52,279 nt of DNA from a virus (lineage: Duplodnaviria; Caudoviricetes), in IMG/VR virus record IMGVR_UViG_3300033420_000007, positions 1-52,279 of that record. One strand, written 5' to 3'. The position numbers were made by a program, and so were the translations under genes. The notes beneath the pieces were generated by a model. The model was not told the DNA's origin, searched no databases, and worked only from the letters and a program-made list of their open reading frames with translations. Positions 2,807 through 48,444 of the stretch are shown one piece after another. The stretch's first letter is position 1, and each line of letters starts with the position of its first letter.

Positions 2807-2888
2807 TTTTAATTGTTTAGTTATAAAATTATTTAACTAGAGTATAATAAGAAAAAATAATCAAATTGCAAGAGAATTTTTAGACTTT

Positions 2889-3842
2889 TTATTTTGATAA
2901 CTTTTTCAACGCTATTCATATATCTTTCTGTAGCTTCTTATCCTCTGTAATCTCTATTCTCATCTTCTCTTCACCTTGCCATTTTTTTTCTCAGAAACTA
3001 TAGAACGCTCCCGCTCTTGTTATTGTTCAAGTTGCTATAGCACAAGTAATTAAGTCCTGTAGGTAGTCAAATCATTTACCAAACTTTATAGCTATATCTG
3101 TTGTTTTAAAAGGTATCCCTACTTTATTTTTAATTATATCAAACGTAGTTACTCCACTACCATCTGCATTTTTATCTTTCTTTGTCTTTGTCCTTATAAT
3201 TACACTAGCGTCAAATGGTAATGCGTTTCCTCCAGGTCTTGTATCTCAAAAAGCGTAAGGGTCAAAACTTTTTCTAATTTGATTTATAAAAAAACAGGTA
3301 CATTCATTAGCACTAGCTTTAGGTGTTATTTTTCTTAGTGCTTGACTCATAAGTCTTGCCCTCATACCCATTTCAGCATCTCATATCTCTCAACTCAGCT
3401 CTTTCATCGGAGTTAATTTAGCAACTGAATCTAACACAACAGCTTTTATTTCTCAAGAACCGCATAATTCTTCCATAATACTAAGTGCTTCCTCTGCTGA
3501 ATTTGGTTGACAGAAAACTACGTTATCCATATCTAGTCAAAGGGCTTTTGCATAATCAGGGTCAAGGGCGAATTCAACATCGATATATCAAACCTTTTTA
3601 TCAGGATAAGCTCTTTGAACTTCCGCAAGAAACAATATGGCTAAGGTACTTTTTCATGAGCTTTGCACTCAGTACAATTCCAAAATTCTTCATTCGGGTA
3701 TTCATCCTCACATAGCTAAATCTAGGCTAGGTAATCAAGTAGATAATCTTTTAACTTCTACATTCTCGAAATCTTTGAATAGTCTCGCTGAACCATCTCA
3801 GTGTTTTTTCTGGATAGTCTTTAGTAAATCTGTAATACTCAT
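2889..3842 (-). CDS. recA: RecA recombinase (317 aa)
   Basis: [85 protein letters not shown]. Confidence 0.97.
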
Positions 3843-3865: not shown

Positions 3866-3930
3866 AAAAAAAAGACAGGATTTTACTCCCGCCCAGTCAC
3901 CAATAGCAATGGTAGGAGTAGTGTAATCAT
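3866..3930 (-). promoter_or_regulatory. GC-rich hairpin in the recA leader followed by a U-tract (terminator or attenuator)
   Basis: TACTCCTACC pairs with GGCGGGAGTA; a T-run follows about 10 nt later. Confidence 0.5.
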
Positions 3931-6131: not shown

Positions 6132-6986
6132 TTAAATAGTAAAGTTTATAAATTTTTGCAATCATCTTTCTCTTGAAAGAAACTCTGAAAATGTGAATCT
6201 ATGTTGATAATAATTATTGTCTGCAGATGGTTTAACACTAGCCATATAATTTACATAATTTTCAGTAGCCTTTATAATCTCCTCAACAGTATATTCTTTC
6301 CTTTTCTTTATCCATAGCTTAAAAATATCTTCAGTATCTTTAATTACTTTTGGTAATCATTTATTAGCCACTCAAAATGGTTTAACATTATTTCGTTTTT
6401 CCCTAAAACCTACATACTCAGATTTATAGTCTATTTTTGGTTTTTTTTCTAAATGTCAAGTCGCGGGTATATTTGTATTTTCATTATCAATAAATAAAGC
6501 TTCAGATTTTTTTTCGGAATTATTATTATTCTTATTATTATTCTTATTTATAGTATGTGCTTCAAATTTTGAACCACTAGTGCTTCAGTTTTTTAAGCAC
6601 TGGTCCTCTAAATTTTGAACCACTAGTGCTTCAGTTTTTTGACCACTATAACTATATAACTCTAAACATTTACTACTAATATATTTAATAACTAGTTCAT
6701 CATTTATCTTGTAATAGTATTTTGCAGGTAGTCACTTTTTTACAACCGATACAAATCATACATCAATAAATCTTTTAATAGCTGTCCTTTGTTCATATTC
6801 TGATATTCATATTTCTAACTCCATATTTTTTTGTGAAAAAAAGAACTCCTCTTGTCAGAATCTATCTCTTTGTCTTATTAACTCTCAAAAATATCAGGCA
6901 TTTAAAAATCAAAACTCCTTAGCTAAAAACTTATTTACAGGAGTATATCCATCTGATGATAGTAAAGCGTTTAAAATATTATTCAT
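6132..6986 (-). CDS. Phage replication initiator (lambda O-like, N-terminal wHTH; 284 aa)
   Basis: FFFSQKNMELEIGISEYEQRTAIKRFIDVGFVSVVKKGLPAKYYYKIN; contains internal iterons; directly upstream of the primase-helicase. Confidence 0.8.
6557..6648. repeat. Four tandem 23-bp direct repeats (iterons) next to an AT-rich tract; probable replication origin
   Basis: Units start at 6557, 6580, 6603 and 6626 with consensus GTGCTTCARWTTTT..(A/C)CACTA; the period is not a multiple of 3; AT-rich TTA run at about 6520-6550. Confidence 0.8.
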
Positions 6987-7003
6987 AACTTTTATTTATA
7001 AAA

Positions 7004-7116
7004 TAAAAAACCTCCGTCAAATAAATGGCGAAGGTCTCTTTTTGGTTTGTCCTAAAACAGTGTATAAGGGCACTTTGGCATTGTCCACCCTCGCCAAAGT
7101 TTTAAGGACAAAACCG
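7004..7116 (-). promoter_or_regulatory. Structured leader (attenuator) of the replication operon
   Basis: Terminator stem 7026-7035/7010-7019 plus U6; competing antiterminator segment 7087-7096; enclosing stem 7099-7115/7044-7058. Confidence 0.65.
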
Positions 7117-7152
7117 TATTGTTTTTTGAAATAATTTCAAATTAACTCGGAT

Positions 7153-7180
7153 ACTATAATCAAATATTTGTAAATTACAA
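7153..7180 (-). promoter_or_regulatory. sigma70-like promoter TTGTAA-N16-TATAGT for the replication operon
   Basis: Motif and position in the intergenic gap. Confidence 0.6.
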
Positions 7181-7220
7181 GGGATTTTGTAATAATTAAA
7201 AAAACCAAACGGCAATTTGG

Positions 7221-9232: not shown

Positions 9233-9829
9233 TTAAATGTTAAAATATTTTCGGATATATCAATAAGCATTATTTGTTTTTCACTTACAACAAGTTCATA
9301 TATGCGAACCTATTCAAGGTTTTCATCTACTTCTTGTAAAATCAGCAATAGAATCTCGTGTCTTTATAAATACTCAATCTAATGTATATTGGTTTACTTT
9401 TTTACTATTTGGATGGTATATTCAAGACTTTCATAAATTACTTCACTTTCTTCATTCATCATAACTTTGTTTTATATTATCAGTATAACTTCACCATTTA
9501 AGATTTTCTACTCTATTGTCTGTCTTTATACTATTTAAGTGCATTACAATATCACTACTATATTCTTGGTTCAAAAAGTTAATAGCAACTAATCTATGAA
9601 TGTTTTTTATAATAATATTGTTATTGTTATGTAATCATACAAATAAGTATCATGTTTGTTTATTTTTGTATTTCTTTATTAATTTACCTTTTATATATCT
9701 AGGAAAGGTATTTCATTTTTTATTTGTTATATTTACATAATGTGAAATAGATTTAACATTTCATAAACTTGATACTTGATATAATCACTCATAACCACCA
9801 ACATCTTTTCGAATTTCTAAATTTTCCAT
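9233..9829 (-). CDS. NUMOD4-HNH-NUMOD1 homing endonuclease (198 aa)
   Basis: EIWKDVGGYEGLYQVSSLGNVKS, IHRLVA, VMHLNSIKTDNRVENLKW, AYGYIWKY. Confidence 0.92.
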
Positions 9830-9831
9830 AA

Positions 9832-9961
9832 CAAAAACGGTTACAATGTAAAATAGGTGCTTTAAAATATAACCGAAGTTGTATTTATCCTATCTTACTG
9901 TGTAACCGTTTGATTATATTTTAAAGCAATTACACTATATTTATATACTTTTATTTTTCAA
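9832..9961 (-). promoter_or_regulatory. Promoter TTGAAA-N16-TATAGT plus an alternative-stem leader of the HNH gene
   Basis: Two long interleaved inverted repeats: 9912-9928/9858-9874 and 9889-9911/9835-9857. Confidence 0.65.
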
Positions 9962-9974
9962 TAGATTTTTATAA

Positions 9975-23434: not shown

Positions 23435-23611
23435 TTAAGTAAAATTATGCAATATTGTAAGTATATTTATACATATTAAAGATGATTGTTGTATTACCTT
23501 CTCTTTGCCGCACATACACTTACATTTTAGATAGTGACTCTTGTTTATAAATCACATATCCTCAATAACAGTTAATCTTCAAAAGTTCTTTCAAATTAAA
23601 TTTTCTTTCAT
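23435..23611 (-). pseudogene. Truncated HNH/AP2-type homing endonuclease (N-terminal Cys domain only)
   Basis: LIGKNFGRLTVIE...KCKCMCGKEK, then loses similarity to the intact paralogue at 25674-26318. Confidence 0.7.
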
Positions 23612-23710
23612 AATTAAATATTTACATAGTAAAGGTATGATAATATATTTGGGAGAGTTAATATCCTTTACATACTTACTCACATTAAGCCGCTAAGCCC
23701 CAAAGATAAT

Positions 23711-24396: not shown

Positions 24397-24828
24397 TTAT
24401 TTACCTAACTCGTATTGAGCTTTTCGTCTTAATTTTCAGATTACATCAAGGTAATCAATAAGTTTATTTTGAGTAACTAAGTCCATTTCTTCTCAAGAAA
24501 CTTTTACCATAGTTTTTAATACTCATTCCATAAACATTAAATCATTATATACTATTTCTAATCAAACTCTAATTTCTGGAACTGAATCAAGTTGTTCTAT
24601 TGAACTTCAAGCGATAGCTTCTTTTAGATTACAAGGTGTTTTATATCAAAGGATATTACATCTTTCTTTAATCCAGTCTACGGCATCATTTCAGAAGAAA
24701 CTATAAACTTCATTTAAAAAAGGATGTATGGAAATGAAGCCTTCGCCACGGCAATCAGTATGTAAACAATGGATTTTATAGTCAAGATTCAAAAAATGTG
24801 ATAACAATACTGGTAGTAATTTTTCCAT
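24397..24828 (-). CDS. dps: Dps-family mini-ferritin (143 aa)
   Basis: KIHCLHTDCRGEGFISIHPFLNEVY...VDWIKERCNILG...DLVTQNKLIDYL..GKLRWK matches the Dps ferroxidase pattern (H, H, DxxxER, D..T, W). Confidence 0.75.
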
Positions 24829-24848: not shown

Positions 24849-24941
24849 TAAAAAAGCCAACATAACATTAAAGTTCGCTGGCTCTCAAAAGAAGCTCTAT
24901 ATAAATTGTGCGTATTATAACTTATTTTATTATTTTTGCAA
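24849..24941 (-). promoter_or_regulatory. Late promoter plus GAGC/leader-terminator module, copy B
   Basis: TTGCAA-N16-TATAATACGC, then GAGCTTC..GAGAGCCAGCG..TGTTGGCTTTTT; homologous to 45570-45675. Confidence 0.7.
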
Positions 24942-24951
24942 TAGAATTATA

Positions 24952-25073: not shown

Positions 25074-25667
25074 TTAAACTAAAGGATTAACTAATGCTGT
25101 ATCTCGTGTAGCTGATATATTTAAGTAATCTACTTGTGATATTCAAAAATTATTATATAAATTAGTATCAAATGAAATAGTATCTGTTGCAGCACAAGAA
25201 ATATCTCTAGTAATTGAAAATGTTTGTGTTTCTGTTCCTCATCAAGGAGCAGCGATAGATTTTCAGATATTGAATAAAGCTCAAGTATTTGCTCAGTTTT
25301 TCTTAAAATAAATATTATCATCACCAAGAACTTGTCTTAATATTCAAGCATCATTTTGACTTCCAGTAACGGTAATTGAAGCTTGTACTTTAAATCTATA
25401 TGTACCCGCTTTATTTATTATATAACTAGCACTTCATACTCATACAGTTCATCAAGATGTATTATTTACAACCGGACTACCAACTGTAACAATATCTTTT
25501 TGTGCTACACTATATGTGGTTCACGCAACAATTCATATATCAGTTCATCAAATTCAAGGCAATTCTTGTGTAGTCATAGGAGTATCAGGTCATTGGTATA
25601 TAAGAGCCTCTCATACTACTGGAGTATTTAGGTCTATTCATCTTGCTTTTAAAGTGGTCTTTGGCAT
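25074..25667 (-). CDS. Putative short tail-fibre protein (197 aa)
   Basis: Open frame; fibre-like PVVGEALIYQG segment. Confidence 0.6.
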
Positions 25668-25673
25668 TTTTTA

Positions 25674-26318
25674 TTAGTTTTAGGGGTAAAATTTATATTT
25701 AGTTTTTCATTTAATGCTCTCTCTATTGTTCGTCAATAATATTTAATTCTTCTGGCTATTATCCTACTTGTTAATCAATATTGTTTTCATCGGTCTATCA
25801 TAGTTTTTGTAATTCAATTATAAGTTAATATATTAGTAGTTCTTTTATTATTTCATTGTTCTATATTAGTGGCTCGTCTACAATTTTCTTTGCAATAATT
25901 TCAGTTATTATCTATACGGTCTATAGATGTATAAGAATTATTCTTTTTATGTTCTAAATAACTTTCATACATATCATTTTTAAATTCTTCAAATGATGTT
26001 CGTAGCATCTTTATTCATCTTCATCAATATCATTTATATTCTTTATTGTTACTATCACTACACCTTTGTACCATACTATTATATATACGATAAAAAGGAT
26101 TATGAGTCATTCAATGTTTTTTATATTTAGTGTATTCACATTCTCAACAAGATTGTTTTCTTCAATGCATAAATATTCACTTCCTTATTGTAATTTTTCT
26201 ACCACAATCACATACACAATCTACATATAGAAACTTATCTTCTTTCACTCTGTATCACTCTTCTATACAAGTTAAATAATTAAACTTTTTTCATAATACA
26301 TAAATGGGTTTAAACATA
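25674..26318 (-). CDS. HNH homing endonuclease with N-terminal CxCxCG domain (214 aa)
   Basis: GKKFNYLTCIE, CVCDCG, KHGM, YGGRGIKMLWTSFEEF, SIDRIDNNGNYCKENCRWAT. Confidence 0.92.
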
Positions 26319-42482: not shown

Positions 42483-42524
42483 TTAAAGAAAGGGCTACCC
42501 ACCTTATTAGGACAGGTAGCCTCT
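42483..42524 (-). terminator. Terminator after the major capsid gene
   Basis: AGAGGCTACC...GGTAGCCCTT followed by CTTT. Confidence 0.65.
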
Positions 42525-42544: not shown

Positions 42545-43516
42545 CTAAGACAATCTAATATTCGCCACACGAACTTGGAATTCACTCGCTCTACATACGA
42601 ATACTGTAGCTTCTGTAACCATGAATTTGATTGCAGCACCAGTCCTATCCAACATAGATTTTCACATTCCATACAAATCTTCCATATATAATGTATCTTG
42701 ACCTTGTGATTTTTCAGTAACCACATAGAAGTCTTCAACAACATTTGGAGCAAATGTAACTACATCAGAAGCGATAGCAAATGAAGCAACGAATGGAAGT
42801 TTACCGATCATAGATTGGTAGAATCCAACATCAACTCAAGTACCTACTTCGTTTGTGTTATCAAGATTAACTCTTACATCACCCATCAATGATAAATTGA
42901 TAGCTCTCTTCATACCGTAACCTACAAATATTGCAGTTGGTCTTTGAGCGTAAGTTCTAACGATACCTTCGATAGCAGTTTCAATAAGGTCTGTTCTGAA
43001 ACCTAATGCGTTGTTGTTATCATCGTAGAAGTTGATAGCAGAAAGAATATCGATGTTTTTTCTCAATCAATCGAATTGTAATACTGAAACACCAGTATCT
43101 CAAGTTATAATCAATTGTTCTTCATCTTGGATAACTTCTCTCAAAGCAACTTCAGTCAATTCACCTTCTAATTCGATGAAAGATTTACCAGCAGCAAGCA
43201 TTCTATCAGTAATAGATTTTGTTTTACCAAGTTCTTTATAGATAGCACTTCTTCTAGCGTAAGTTGTAGCATCTTCTGTAGGAGTAAGTCATTCAGCAAA
43301 AGCAGAAGTTCCAACTCACATAGCAGTCAATACATTCCAAGAAGCAGCTAGACCAGCACCAGTTTTTCTAGGCAATCTATCTCTAATTGGAGTTTCTTTG
43401 AAAGTCAATCTATTAATAAATGCGTCAAGATTTTCTCTTGTAAGGATTGCTCCTTGTATGTAAGCAGGCGTTCACATTGCCTTCTCTACATTTTCTAATG
43501 TTTGTTTTATATCCAT
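42545..43516 (-). CDS. Major capsid protein (323 aa)
   Basis: RENLD, ETPIRDRLPR, EEQLIITGD...QFDGL; lies between the scaffold and neck genes. Confidence 0.88.
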
Positions 43517-43544
43517 TTGAATAATATTAAAATAAATAAAAGTT

Positions 43545-45551
43545 TTATTGCATTGATTTCTTTACTTCAGCCAAAGCTTCTCATAAAGACATTTTTGGAT
43601 TTACATCCATCATCTTGTTAACTCTTTCTTCGAAACTAGCATTGTTGTTTTCCTCTCTTGAGAAAGATTTCTCTAAAGCTGTATAACTAGCAATACTTTT
43701 TCTTGGAGCAGCGTTATTTCAAATTACCTCCACTAAGTTCTTTAACGAATTAAATTCTCAAGATAGTTCACTGTATGATTTTTCAATAGTTGATAATTTA
43801 TTTTCTTCAAAAGATTTAGTAAGATTGTTAGATTTTTCTATTTCAGTTTGTAAGTTACTTACTGTTTTAGTCAATCCATTAATCATTTCTGATACACTAG
43901 CCATAATTTCTTCTTTCATATCACTGATAGCTTTACTCATAGCAACTGTATCAATACCTTTTCTATCTGGAGAAGCTTTTACTTTAGATTTTTCTGTTTC
44001 CTCTTCATCTTCTTCTTTCATTCATTCTGCTTTCTTCTCTTTAACTTTCTTATCAGCTTCTTCATTAGCTTCCTCTTCTTCTTCTTGGATTGTAGGAGCT
44101 TTCTTTTCAGTATCATCTTCATCTTCTGATTTAGTAGCTAATTGTTCTCTTGCTTGTCTTTTTGCATTGTGATCGGACATAGCTTTTCATGGAGTTACAG
44201 GCGTAGCCTTATCAACTCATTCTACATCAGCTGTTTCCTCAACAACTTCTTCCTCATTTTTAGCATATCAACATGCTTTGCAAACTTTACCTACCATCTC
44301 AGCTCAACATTTTTCACATTTACATTCTTCTGTTGATTTCGCAACCTCTTCTTGTACAGTTTCTACTGCAACTTCTACTGGTTCAATTGCTTCAGCCTCG
44401 CCTACGCTTTCAACAACTGGTTCAGTAACTGCTTCAGTAACAACTACTTCTGTGTTTTCTGGGATTGGTGTTTCTGATTTAGTAACCTCTTCTACAGCTG
44501 GCACTTCTTCAACTACAGTTTCTACAACAGCCTCAGCAACAGCTTCAACAGGTGTTTCAACTACAACTTCTTCAGCAACAACAGTCTCTTCAGTTTCGTC
44601 AACACTTTTAGTAAATCTCATTATTTTATTGTTAATTGATAAATTCTTACTTACATCTTTATTTACTGCAATTTGTCCTTCACCAACTCAAGATTGGTTT
44701 ACTGGCAAATCACTGTGGAACATTCAAGCCATTCTATTTCAAAGTGAAACTTTATGTCTCTTTCTTTCCATCATAACTCTATATGCCTCAGCTACTTTCA
44801 TAACTTCTTTATCAGATAAGTCATTACCATTAGCTTGTGGTCTAGCTCATTCTTTATTTACATAGAATGTATAGCATTTCTCCATAAGATTAATTTCATC
44901 AGCAGTTATAGTCATATCTACAACATTAGCTTTTTCTTGGAAATTAGTTTTGTTCATCTCTTGATTATTATAAGTTAAAGAATTTAAATCATTATTTTTT
45001 TTAAGTCATTTATAATACTCGATAAGTTTTTTTCATTCAGTAGTATACTCGTGCTTCTCTACATCAAATGACTTTGCTATAGATAGTGTAGTATTCATAT
45101 TACTAGGGTTTTTAACTACAGATATTTCAGTAAGCATCACATCAGTAAAAGTTTTAATCTGTCTACCAGCTTCTTTTACATACTCAAATGTAGCATCTAC
45201 TACTTTACCTCATACAGATAAAGCTACTGATTTTCCTTTCTCTAATAATACAGCTAAGTCTTTTCCAATGCTATAATCTAAATCTACTTCTCATTTAACG
45301 GTCATCTGCATATCTTTATTAAGACTAGCATCTTTCCAAACTCATATTTCTGAATAGAATTTATTCTCGTGTTCTACTCTAATAGGTATATTTCAATTGA
45401 TTACTCATTCTGCCATTTTTTTAATAGCATTTTCTGAGAACCTTTCGTTATCTCTATCAATAGAAGGATCAGAGGCTATTCATTCTATCATCAATACATT
45501 TCTTTTTGAATCTCTTGTTGCCTTAGTAATAGGTATATTCAATTTGAACAT
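43545..45551 (-). CDS. HK97-type prohead protease fused in frame to an acidic scaffold (668 aa); internal start at 44621
   Basis: EGIASDPSIDRDNERF, ALSVGG, LTEISVVKNPSN; frame read as open from about 45060 through the ATG at 44621. Confidence 0.85.
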
Positions 45552-45569
45552 AGATTATTTTGAAATTAT

Positions 45570-45675
45570 AAAAAACCAACATACTTTTCAGTTTGTCGGC
45601 TTTCAAATCGAAGCTCAGGGTGATTAGCCCTCACATAATTTAGGCGTATTATAGATAAATAACTTAATATTGCAA
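45570..45675 (-). promoter_or_regulatory. Late promoter plus GAGC/leader-terminator module, copy A
   Basis: TTGCAA-N16-TATAATACGC, GAGCTTC..GAAAGCCGACA..TGTTGGTTTTT. Confidence 0.7.
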
Positions 45676-45682
45676 TAGATTT

Positions 45683-46066
45683 TTAATTTTTTGTCATAGC
45701 CCTTCTTTTATTTTCTACTATTAATGCTCTTTGACTTACACTTAATGAAGCTAATCTTGCGTTTTCTATTACTTGCACATCAAATAAATTAATAGTGTGA
45801 CAATGTTTACATTTAATCTCTACTACTGAATCAATACTGATTGCTCTACCTAATAATCTTTTACATTCTTTACATCTTAAATCTGTAGCAAGATTTTGGA
45901 ACGCTTGTCATTTAGGTCAGATATCTTGACTAATTCTACTCTCTCAAACATAGCTTGTAAATCTGTTGTCTTCGTTTAATATCTCTATCTGTCATTCTCC
46001 TGCAGCTCTACATAATACTTTTTTAGACACGAAACATTTGTACTCTTTTAGTGGTTTTGTATTCAT
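45683..46066 (-). CDS. Mu Com-like zinc-finger regulator with a degenerate tandem first domain (127 aa)
   Basis: DLRCKECKRLLGRA...VEIKCKHCHTIN. Confidence 0.75.
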
Positions 46067-46081
46067 ATGTATTTTTATTAT

Positions 46082-46921
46082 TTAAAAACTATCTATAAAT
46101 TCTTTTGGACTACTAGTGAAATCGTATAATATTGTACATTTGCACGAAGGATGTAATGGAGGAGCATCAACTCAATGAAAACTATCGCCTATTCTTACTG
46201 TTAATCAGTTTAAACTATTACAAGGTCAGCAAGTTCTTTCATCAGCTACAGCTTCCCGAGTCTTTGTTTCTGCTCAGTTTACTCTAGCCATTTCGTGTCT
46301 TACAAATTGTAATAAACTGTTACTTTCAGTAGTCATTATTATTCAAGCTCTATCTCTAGCGATTTCTTTTCAAAGTTTTATTAGGCTACCAGTCATCTGT
46401 TTCATAGTCAATCCATTTTCTAGTCAAGTAACCATATTCTTAGCTAGTTTATTCATTGTAGTTTTGTCTAGTCACTTTATCAATGTACCTATCCTTTGCC
46501 CAATTATTTTTTCTAATCATACTCAGATTTTAAAGTCTTTTCTTGAACCTAGTTGGTCTAGTATACTTTGTCATCATATTCTAGCTACTCATAATAAGTG
46601 CATACCTATAATGGCATTATAATCTGTATTAGATAAACTGTTTATTTTTTTTGAAGCCTGTCAGGAAATATAATCTTCTAATTTTTTCCTATCCTCTACA
46701 CTAGCTTTATTATTTGCTAGTCATTCTAATACATTCTTTCATAGCGTATTGTAGACAGTCCAAACTATTCACGATAACACCAGTTCATCTCGCTGACTTT
46801 TTAGTAACTTCTGTGTTTTTTTCTCTGTAACTACATAATCGTCACTTGACTCAATTTCATCAAGCTCTGCGTTCTCTTCATATTCATCTTCATAGTTTTT
46901 TTCTATACAATCTTTACACAT
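46082..46921 (-). CDS. Mu gpF/SPP1 gp7-like minor head protein (279 aa)
   Basis: RAGIMTTE, KTWEAVADERTCGPC, APPLHPSCKCTI. Confidence 0.88.
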
Positions 46922-48377
46922 AGTCTTCTTCGTAATATAAATCTTTTTGGAACATATTATCTTCGTCATCTATATCTTTCTTGTAAGGCATACGCTTAAT
47001 GTTTACTTTTGCGTTTTCTTCTTTCCCTCTCCTATCTTGTTTTGGTAATCAAGGTTCAGGTTGTTTACCTGTGGCAGTTCTCAATTTAGCTCAGAGTTCC
47101 TCAGAAAAAATTGGTTCTTTCAAAGGGTCTTTTCAATCTCTAGCTCTTATTTCATTTGCTGTATATACTCAGTTCTGTAAGTATAAATCATCTACTTGTG
47201 CTTGTTTCAACTGTATATCTACATTATCACTTTCAATAAACTTAAACTCTAATCGTTTGAACTTATCGTTTCACTCTTCCATATATCTTATTATATTTCT
47301 TGTGAAGTATTCCTCTATAAGTTTTTTATTACTTCTTACTCATCTAGCATTACTCAAAGCACGCATAGTCTCTCAAGTACTTCTTGTCATATCCTGCAAT
47401 ATATTTGCATCAATAGAAGAAAGTCAGTAAGTAGCTAGTTTTATTTTAGATAACCAGTTTATATATTCGATATACTGCATATCCTTTTGAGATGTACTCA
47501 AAGGTATAAACTTCTTTTCTTGACTAGAACCTCGTACAAATTTCATTGAGTGAGGATTTCATATAACTGTAGCATTCCAAGTAGCGATAAACTCTTCTGC
47601 TTGGTCTTGTGTCATATCTCATAGGTCTAATATTCCTGGAGGTAAGTTATCTTTTGTAAAGTGCTTTATATTAAACATATCAGCTTCTAACGCTGCTTGT
47701 ACTTGAAGTAGTATTGATTCTATAGCAGATAATCAATATCAAAAAGTATCTATATCATTACTAGGGTTAGCCATAATATAAACTAAATCTTCTTTCTTGA
47801 AACTACATCTAACTTTTTCATAAACTAACTGAAGGTATGCTGGGTCACCTAGTTCTCAATACTCATTATATATAGGTCTCAAGGTTCAGCCGTCAACGCT
47901 ATTCAAAGCTACTATTCTTTTTCAATCTAAGCTTCTTATAATTTCTATTCACGCAGAATCGAGTGTAAGAATATCTTCCATTACTCTATCTAATAATATT
48001 CTCATATTCTCACCATTCATATTCATATACTCAAAAAGATTATAACAAGTATCTATCTCTTTCTCGTAGTCTTTCTTTATGTTACCTGGTGCGTTCTTTT
48101 TCACTTGTATTATCCATTCTGATTGAGATACAGCTTTCTTAATTACATTAATACAAATTCTTATGATAGCATCTCTACTAGCGATCTGTCTAAGTATTTT
48201 AAACGTTACTTTTCAAGGTTTCCTTAATCAGTATTGTTCTATTTGTTGAGGTGATGAATACCCTCTAGTGGTATTTAATGAAATTGCTTTGAACTTTTTG
48301 GCATCAGTACTCTCTGTTGCTTTCTGTACTGTTGCTAGTCAAGTATTTTTCTGAAATTTTCTACTTTTTTTACTCAT
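46914..48377 (-). CDS. Portal protein, HK97-like (487 aa)
   Basis: VDGGTLRP, GYGLSAIES, NLPPGIL, KDMQYIEY, GVYTANEIRA. Confidence 0.9.
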
Positions 48378-48416
48378 TTTGAAAAAATATGCAAAAATAA
48401 ATGTACAATTTTCGGG

Positions 48417-48444
48417 ATTATACATAATCTTTACAAAAAAACAA
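48417..48444 (-). promoter_or_regulatory. Promoter TTGTTT-N16-TATAAT upstream of the portal gene
   Basis: Motif and position. Confidence 0.55.

Follow-up and report, generated by a model that had tools for sequence, protein, structure and literature searches.

In the 52,279-nucleotide (nt) stretch of viral DNA analyzed here (the window), which is the entire IMG/VR record IMGVR_UViG_3300033420_000007, a single 52-kb contig estimated to hold about 54% of a phage genome, a short RNA element lies between the gene for a protein with tandem Com-type zinc ribbons and the gene for a prohead protease fused to a scaffold-like tail. Judged by its folding and by its conservation in related loci, this element, hereafter leader A, is a conserved structured leader RNA, and it is likely that the neighboring tandem Com protein binds it and controls the downstream genes at some level after initiation. 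The more specific reading that we favor is a switch resembling that of Com in phage Mu but acting on a terminator, by which the protein would enable transcription of the capsid operon, and we give it about an even chance.

Leader RNA A and its conservation in related loci

The sequence-only reading of the window had proposed that one module, consisting of a promoter, GAGC elements, a hairpin and a U-tract, occurs twice, and both copies, A and B, were found on the minus strand. The features of copy A, the gene preceding it and the promoter of copy B are the following:

45683..46066, minus strand: gene for the tandem Com-type zinc-ribbon protein, 127 amino acids (aa) (Pfam PF10122, PHROG 6417)
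45644..45679, minus strand: promoter A, TCTATTGCAA (−35 TTGCAA at 45670-45675), a 16-nt spacer and TATAAT (45648-45653) followed by ACGC
45617..45631, minus strand: hairpin P1, AGGG, a 7-nt loop and CCCU, placed by the model alignment; one of its four pairs covaries (G-C to C-G or A-U)
45600..45616, minus strand: GAG linker (45614-45616) and hairpin P2 (CUU at 45611-45613 paired with AAG at 45600-45602)
45570..45600, minus strand: P3, a terminator-like hairpin (45575-45600) followed by six U (45570-45575), placed by folding
24910..24945, minus strand: promoter B, TCTATTGCAA-N16-TATAATACGC

Copy A carries GAGCTTC-N5-GAAAGCC at 45598-45616 and copy B GAGCTTC-N4-GAGAGCC at 24880-24897, both on the minus strand and each followed, as had been read, by a hairpin and a run of six U. 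In copy A the 3′ arm of P1 and the linker read CC-CU-GAG, and the first base of P3 is the last base of P2. The fold energies are −14.8 kcal/mol (z-score −3.8) for copy A and −15.9 kcal/mol (z-score −4.5) for copy B, with 1/200 and 0/200 shuffles, respectively, folding equally well. P1, a hairpin of 15 nt, is an extra element of copy A and is absent from copy B. Pairing is indeed kept while the hairpin arms differ between the copies, as had been noted, but the changes are GA/AG swaps opposite UU, tolerated as G-U wobbles, and not true compensatory changes. No Rfam 15 family matched anywhere in the window at its gathering score, and the sole match at 45400-45800 was AgrB, with 20.9 bits against a gathering score of 40.

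Relatives were collected by a capsid-protein search, which gave 14 IMG/VR loci of 55-77% identity, and by alignments of the protease N-terminus, which added three more IMG/VR contigs and 19 close metagenome loci, some contigs being filed twice. Throughout the related loci, the genes for the portal, the MuF-like protein, a Cys-rich open reading frame (ORF) and the protease/scaffold keep one order. A first covariance model of P1 and P2, built from 7 seeds, found exactly one strong match per related locus, always in the spacer between the com and protease genes, and a rebuilt model comprised 17 sequences; the model match in the window spans 45591-45634 (44.9 bits, E 1.3e-15). Across relatives, P1 has the form AGG(G/C), loop, (C/G)CCU and is followed by the GAG linker, a P2 of 3-4 base pairs (bp) with a loop such as C-A/U-AGA, and P3 directly thereafter. 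The alignment holds 23 rows, namely 22 true matches and one weak false match on the opposite strand of the locus L221, and 98.0% of its cells are paired, compared with 24-73% when the 3′ partners are slid by one to three columns. The P2 pairs are 100% paired over the 23 rows, all three of them and one P1 pair vary on both sides (CCU/AGG, CUU/AAG, CUC/GAG, UCC/GGA), and none of 500 shuffles reached as high a covariation score, although these pairing and covariation figures overstate independence because the rows were fitted to the model and come from related sequences. A reading of an ATG inside leader A as the start of a leader peptide was dropped, since relatives do not conserve this ATG and the covariation of the region is that of an RNA.

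Linkage of the module with Com genes in relatives, on which the sequence-only reading had staked itself, was found for both gene and RNA. A profile of the Cys-rich ORFs detected a Com-like ORF directly upstream of the protease/scaffold gene in 29/29 loci with at least 490 nt of upstream sequence (25 distinct loci after removal of duplicates; two further loci were too short to judge, and L327, described below, comes in addition). The leader RNA was found in 22 of the 28 distinct loci, with one match each, on the gene strand and between the tandem-Com and protease/scaffold genes. Among the loci without a model match, the genes of L011 and L014 lie only 11 and 24 nt apart, other hairpins occur in L006 and L228, and L135 and L227 have variants that are recognizable by eye but fall below model detection. 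A motif-first scan, in which a DNA pattern of the P1-P2-P3 junction was run over IMG/VR, returned 110 matches, six of them model-positive at 44 bits or more and five of these on known contigs. The sixth was L327, an 86-kb contig not reached by the protein searches, which has a tandem-Com ORF (E 4.1e-32) just upstream of the RNA, a protease gene just downstream and a further compensated variant of P2, CCC/GGG. The remaining 104 pattern matches are due to chance, including one that scored 15 bits within a coding region, and a looser pattern run over IMG/VR gave no true further case among the matches listed. Nowhere among the 22/22 model matches and L327 was the RNA seen apart from a Com-like gene.

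Promoters of the two modules

As had been claimed, the same promoter precedes both modules: within the window, TTGCAA-N16-TATAAT occurs only at 45648-45675 and 24914-24941, that is, twice compared with 0.24 occurrences expected, a number reached by 3/100 shuffles. The extended element TATAATACGC has nine window matches with at most one mismatch and is exact at promoters A and B only. The two promoters are identical at the −35, at the five bases flanking it (TCTATTGCAA), at the −10 and at the ACGC.

Among relatives, a promoter-like site lies 10-50 nt before P1 in 15/23 leaders, compared with 4.8% of background positions, and in 19/23, compared with 9.8%, when the −10 is relaxed; the promoter spacers and flanks show no conservation. 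In L003, L004, L009, L010, L216 and L220 the −35 of the leader promoter (TTGC or TTGA) begins 9-10 nt before the end of the com stop codon. With a promoter at this distance from P1 and its −35 inside the last com codons, the RNA is to be regarded as a 5′ leader and not only as a 3′ untranslated region, and it is predicted to be made from its own promoter and also by read-through from upstream. In five of those six loci the −35 falls in Leu-Ala codons near the C-terminus of the Com-like protein, and the conserved C-terminal Leu-Ala may be kept by the promoter and not by the protein.

The Com recognition motif and the tandem Com protein

In SELEX, a Com zinc finger selected GAG-N2-CC, mostly as a bipartite motif flanking a variable stem of 3-4 bp; Com also bound CC-N2-3-GAG in a hairpin loop, with protection of the GA dinucleotide, and in the mom mRNA these motifs adjoin and partly overlap the translation-inhibiting hairpin opened by Com (Nowacka et al. 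2019, PMC6483171). The same article gives a length of 62 aa for Mu Com, a protein known solely as a translational activator (PMC6483171).

The GAGC/AAGC units singled out by the sequence-only reading proved close to this published motif, and they abut or overlap the terminator stem. CC-N2-3-GAG occurs in 19/23 leader cores, compared with 2.1% of 44-nt segments (100/4749 in this phage and 194/9388 in eight loci), and the strict form GAG-N2-CC in 7/23, compared with 1.2% of segments; the relaxed form GAR-N2-3-CC is present in 20/23 cores. In many relatives CC-UA-GAG runs across the P2 loop, and GAG-AG-CC runs into P3. We regard the motif match as the best single argument for the predicted binding of the leader RNA by the neighboring protein.

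The likeness to Mu Com and mom extends further. Both systems have a Com-type CxxC...CxxC zinc ribbon, a regulator gene directly upstream of its target, and a target RNA with CC-N2-3-GAG and GAG-N2-CC in or around a small hairpin whose variable stem has 3-4 bp, and this small hairpin adjoins and partly overlaps a larger inhibitory hairpin. However, whereas Mu Com is one small domain of 62 aa with a disordered tail, the proteins found here have tandem ribbons and 95-170 aa (127 aa in the window). The mom hairpin covers the start codon, while here a terminator with a U-tract stands at a variable distance from the ATG, and the extra hairpin P1 has no counterpart in Mu. The Mu target is a DNA-modification gene, in contrast to the capsid protease/scaffold and major capsid protein genes here.

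That the gene directly upstream of copy A encodes a Com-type finger, as had been proposed, was confirmed by a match of residues 62-93 to Zn_ribbon_Com (PF10122; E 3.8e-7, 29.9 bits against a cut-off of 22.9), and the protein also matches PHROG 6417, annotated as 'translational regulator' (E 4.3e-6). Its finger 2 is intact, with C64, C67, C85 and C88 forming a predicted CxxC...CxxC zinc site. In the alignment of the family, two Com-type ribbons stand in tandem, joined by a conserved IGLRG-x-DFQ linker and followed by C-terminal helices, and all eight Cys are kept in 20/26 members. Finger 1 is mostly degenerate in the window protein and in that of L003, which have no RNA change in common; finger 2 is mostly degenerate in L010 and L216, and the leaders of these two have CCAAAG where others have CCGAC. 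The loss of finger 2 and the CCAAAG count as a single event, since L010 and L216 are sister sequences.

The AlphaFold2 model of the 127-aa protein (predicted local distance difference test score 92.4) has two beta-ribbons and C-terminal helices. Foldseek against PDB (best E-value 0.11), VIA-align (best Z 2.9, the zinc-ribbon protein Tim15) and a profile search (best match eS27, E 0.021) gave no clear solved structural counterpart. The family is rare: a search of 5.8 billion proteins yielded eight matches, including one of 97% identity to the window protein that is located on a contig of about 94 kb. No relative was found in GenBank phages, a single-protein search of IMG/VR with the Com-like protein gave no match, and the Q family was absent from its Pfam matches at E up to 0.1.

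A predicted terminator and the proposed switch

P3 and its U-tract, a stem-loop followed by six U, have the layout of an intrinsic terminator in copies A and B, although a simple terminator scanner missed both hairpins because of an internal bulge. By reading of the sequences, a stem and a U-rich tail follow P2 in 22/23 leaders. The stem itself varies (often CCGAC/GUCGG, otherwise CCAC/GUGG, CCGUA/UACGG and others), with inserts at its tip of 7 nt to more than 100 nt. P3 covers no start codon: it ends 22 nt before the ATG at 45551 in copy A and 25 nt before the ATG at 24828 in copy B, and only the hairpin of L006 (= L222) reaches the ATG. From P3 to the ATG, relatives have about 10 nt to well over 100 nt. 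The U-rich tail and this variable distance fit a terminator better than a mask over the start site, and the suggestion that protein binding frees the start region therefore appears unlikely as a general mechanism. When whole leaders are folded without constraints to minimum energy, the P3 stem takes in, as paired bases, all three positions of the P2 3′ arm in 18/21 leaders, and P2 and the base of the terminator stem are therefore expected to compete.

We propose the following course of events. Promoter A, of sigma-70 type, would produce the capsid operon's 5′ leader, an RNA roughly 70 nt long, which would fold into P1, the GAG linker, the weak 3-bp P2 and then the intrinsic terminator formed by P3 and the U-tract. 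Without the protein, the purine-rich 3′ arm of P2 would form the base of the terminator stem, and most transcripts would end short of the ATG. The portal-MuF transcript, which comes before, would supply the tandem Com protein, and this protein would bind the CC-N2-3-GAG and GAG-N2-CC elements displayed on P1, the linker and P2; once bound, it would hold P2 closed or cover the base of P3, so that the terminator could not close beside the U-tract and the polymerase would read on into the capsid operon, that is, the protease/scaffold, the major capsid protein and the following genes. We infer binding, the activating direction and termination as the level of action from sequence comparisons.

Several observations weigh against this switch, in addition to the limited independence of the pairing and covariation figures. 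The Com-like gene persists without the conserved RNA in 6/28 loci, and finger 1 of the window protein retains one of its four Cys. P2 has only 3 bp, its overlap with P3 amounts to 1-3 nt apart from the U-tract pairs, and in L003, L013, L001, L007 and L135 the two hairpins can coexist side by side. Copy B lacks P1 and has been seen in no relative examined. Furthermore, terminator-like hairpins near start codons, without P1 or P2, are common in this genome (after the capsid gene, before recA, before an HNH gene and before a replication gene), and passive or leaky read-through may therefore suffice in this phage.

Two of these other hairpins can be described here. The one at 42493-42521 (minus strand), right after the capsid gene, is strong, with 11 pairs, six of them G-C, and the next ATG follows after 26 nt with no room for a promoter; it could be either a leaky attenuator that sets an excess of capsid protein or a site needing antitermination. 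The one at 3873-3894 (minus strand) has eight U, lies 23 nt upstream of the recA ATG and is preceded by a promoter-like TTGAAA-N16-TACACT, and it is without a Com-type motif.

Alternative explanations

The leader could instead work post-transcriptionally, as in Mu, if binding refolded it so that the protease/scaffold mRNA became more stable or better translated, and if the role of the U-tract hairpin were structural or stabilizing only. We consider this unlikely. In its favor, translational activation is the only known role of Com (PMC6483171), and P3 ends only 10-30 nt before the ATG in the window and in about half of the relatives. The hairpin of L006/L222, which has no U-tract and ends close to the protease ATG in a Mu-like layout, points the same way. 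On the other hand, the hairpin stands some 70-200 nt from the ATG in L012, L013, L215, L005 and L230, a U-rich tail as widely kept as the one described above would be needless for a translational operator, and in none of the sequences read does P3 sequester a Shine-Dalgarno-like element. Somewhat more unlikely, in our opinion, is processive antitermination, in which a protein bound to P1/P2, as lambda N on boxB, or the RNA itself, as HK022 put, would ride with RNA polymerase past P3 and the terminators downstream. All genes run in one direction, and the terminator at 42493-42521, with its next ATG so near and no room for a promoter, must be passed by something, although it could simply be leaky and set the excess of capsid over later products. 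Nut and put sites sit right after a promoter, and so does the element described here; but its tight P2-P3 abutment or overlap is what a local switch needs and not what a processive device needs, and neither a boxA-like element nor an Rfam match is present.

It is also conceivable that the RNA is independent of its neighbor, as a constitutive attenuator, a ligand-sensing riboswitch or a stable small RNA, and that the Com-like gene is a syntenic neighbor with another target. The presence of the gene without the RNA in L011 and L014 would agree with this, as would the discrete RNA of about 60-70 nt that promoter and terminator would release; we nevertheless find it improbable, for the RNA is always beside the gene (22/22 model matches and L327) and the leader carries the published Com motif far above background. 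That the protein is a repressor, whose binding favors termination or blocks the leader and so restrains capsid expression, we hold to be quite improbable. RNA-binding proteins that promote termination exist, TRAP and PyrR being examples, and sequence alone does not reveal the direction of an effect. However, the protein-free fold already favors the full terminator, so that a factor would be needed to open it and not to close it, a repressor gene placed within the morphogenesis operon, immediately before the capsid genes, would make poor sense in timing, and Com is an activator (PMC6483171). Least probable of all, and very much so, is a mechanism like that of lambda Q at PR′-tR′, with the zinc protein binding promoter DNA and loading onto a paused RNA polymerase. 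The order of lambda, with the Q gene, promoter, short leader, terminator and late genes, is repeated here, and the TATAATACGC that is identical in A and B could belong to a DNA site. Yet Pfam gives the protein no Q-family match but the RNA-binding Com ribbon alone, what is conserved downstream of the promoter covaries in the manner of RNA helices, and the promoter spacers and flanks are not conserved among relatives.

Start-site control may still occur within the family. In L006 (4248-4336; = L222) the P1-P2-terminator motif is replaced by a long hairpin without a U-tract; CC-CA-GAG-AG is found in its 5′ arm, and its 3′ arm stops 4 nt short of the protease ATG. The similarity of this arrangement to the translation-inhibition structure of Mu suggests that one protein family has switched between two levels of control.

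Comparison with known systems

Apart from Mu, the arrangement recalls three kinds of regulators. With lambda Q/PR′/tR′ it shares the immediate succession of regulator gene, promoter, short leader and a terminator that has to be passed before structural genes are expressed; it differs in having no sequence relation, in having a conserved RNA structure where lambda has a DNA binding element and a pause site, and in the position of the portal and MuF genes upstream of the switch. BglG/SacY/LicT with their RAT elements, ANTAR proteins and HutP are RNA-binding antiterminators that stabilize an anti-terminator overlapping the terminator. Common to the RAT-type systems and the present one is a weak hairpin that shares bases with the 5′ arm of the terminator and a protein, here a predicted one, to hold that hairpin; in contrast, those proteins have CAT-PRD or ANTAR folds and not a zinc ribbon, and the overlap here comprises 1-3 nt and the U-tract pairs. 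Like lambda N-nut and HK022 put, the leader is a small structured RNA just downstream of a phage promoter, with two copies in this window, but it has no boxA or Rfam match and is fused to one particular terminator.

Titles and abstracts on Com antitermination, PF10122 or Zn_ribbon_Com contained no description of a Com-type antiterminator or of this RNA. We put forward, tentatively and with somewhat less than even confidence, that tandem Com proteins are a new class of RNA-binding transcription antiterminators, which would gate capsid genes through an undescribed leader RNA in uncultured phages, many of which read TGA as Gly; the device would be rewired between a terminator (in most) and start-site control (L006 type) and would possibly serve several operons per genome. 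The protein-operated terminator switches known so far use a handful of folds (CAT, ANTAR, TRAP, PyrR and arginine-rich peptides). If our proposal is true, the zinc ribbon is an additional one, and the role of Com widens from a single textbook case to a general regulatory module. The proposed circuit is concrete, small and testable, its RNA measuring about 70 nt and its protein about 115 aa; the leader motif is a candidate for a new Rfam family, and the natural terminator and start-site variants of the hairpin offer a comparison of one RNA-binding protein re-used at two levels of expression.

The phage, its genetic code and gene order

By its Pfam and PHROG matches, the window belongs to a contractile-tailed phage with a Mu-like head module. 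The sequencing runs listed for 43500-47000 are all DNA runs from microbial-mat and sediment metagenomes. Translation table 11 gives only short ORFs, while table 4 or 25, in which TGA is a sense codon, gives about 60 long ones, every one of them on the minus strand. The RecA homologue (2889-3842, minus strand) has 17 TGA codons, all at Gly positions, including G63, which we take to be the Walker-A glycine, and the code of the window is therefore that of table 25 (TGA = Gly) and not table 4. In the large ORFs of the window, TGA accounts for up to about 8% of codons, and the gene of the 127-aa Com-like protein has four such codons. Gracilibacteria and Absconditabacteria read TGA as glycine, and nothing on gene regulation in phages with this code was found in the literature searched (for Gracilibacteria phages, by titles and listings). 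By contrast, the three genes seen in the relative L327 lack in-frame TGA and give the same reading with table 11, and the Com/leader module is therefore not bound to the recoded lineage.

The annotated genes on either side of leaders A and B are as follows:

46914-48425, minus strand: portal (Pfam/PHROG)
46082-46969, minus strand: MuF-like gene (Pfam/PHROG)
43545..45551, minus strand: prohead protease with a long acidic scaffold-like tail fused to it (Pfam Peptidase_S78 at residues 30-161)
42545-43516, minus strand: major capsid protein gene, next after the protease/scaffold gene (Pfam)
24397..24828, minus strand: ferritin/Dps-like DNA-binding protein, first gene after leader B (PHROG 3636, E 1.6e-16)

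The protease/scaffold gene, with its ATG at 45551, is the first downstream of leader A. Past the capsid gene, the minus-strand order continues with sheath, tape measure, baseplate and fibre-like genes, two HNH endonucleases and the Dps-like gene, and then, by Pfam and PHROGs, with large fibre-like proteins and a replication and recombination block. The Dps-like protein matched Pfam Ferritin with E 8.4e-4, under the cut-off. No terminase was seen in the window, which is a partial genome (about 54%), and a scan of reference genomes revealed no prophage relative. Comparison of the capsid protein with GenBank phages gave only SPO1-like capsid proteins of 24-27% identity.

Copy B and other leaders in the window

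Copy B, which precedes the Dps-like gene, has the following structure:

24850..24897, minus strand: leader B, without P1, comprising GAG (24895-24897), a P2-like CUU/GAG hairpin (24882-24894), P3 (24854-24884) and a U-tract (24850-24855)

Features in common with copy A are the promoter, GAGCTTC, the P2-like hairpin and the 3′ arm of P3, and the GAGAGCC of copy B is an exact GAG-N2-CC. Neither covariance model scored it, even with filters off. Two long related contigs of 75 and 53 kb, both partial, were searched for a second copy with the model, with BLAST and with a scan for promoter, hairpin and ATG, and yielded only false matches in coding sequence; they also held no Dps-like homologue. From these comparisons, we take copy B to be a truncated paralogue (P2 and P3 only), perhaps still responsive to the same protein, and it provides no independent evidence for a two-operon regulon.

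The idea of a single switch for all late genes, replacing Q, is not supported: the switch comes only after the portal and MuF genes, other genes also have promoters of this type before them, and the contig represents only about 54% of the genome. Such promoters precede an HNH gene and an unannotated gene at 2534-2806. The former, TCTATTGAAA-N16-TATAGT at 9934-9965 (minus strand), is followed by a long hairpin (ACGGUUACA ... UGUAACCGU), UUUUGUU and directly thereafter the ATG of an HNH/NUMOD4 gene (region 9830-9965). The latter, TCTCTTGCAA-N16-TATTAT, lies near 2875 (region 2845-2875, minus strand).

A further leader, at 6987-7180 (minus strand), belongs to a replication-initiator-like gene (6132-6986). 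It has a promoter, TTGTAA-N16-TATAGT, and a long structured region with AGGG...CCCU, and its GAGACC runs straight into a terminator-like hairpin with a U-tract, 24 nt before the ATG. These features may mark it as a third, diverged site of action for the Com-like protein, although neither covariance model scored it. The 70-codon ORF at 6996-7208 that overlaps this leader is probably spurious.

Homing-type HNH genes, all on the minus strand, are found among the fibre-like genes, namely a full gene at 25649-26317 and a short fragment at 23435-23683, both of PHROG 374, and an NUMOD4/HNH_3 gene at 9233-9829. The full PHROG 374 gene has module B about 0.7 kb downstream of it, and this proximity could bear on the origin of the second copy of the module.

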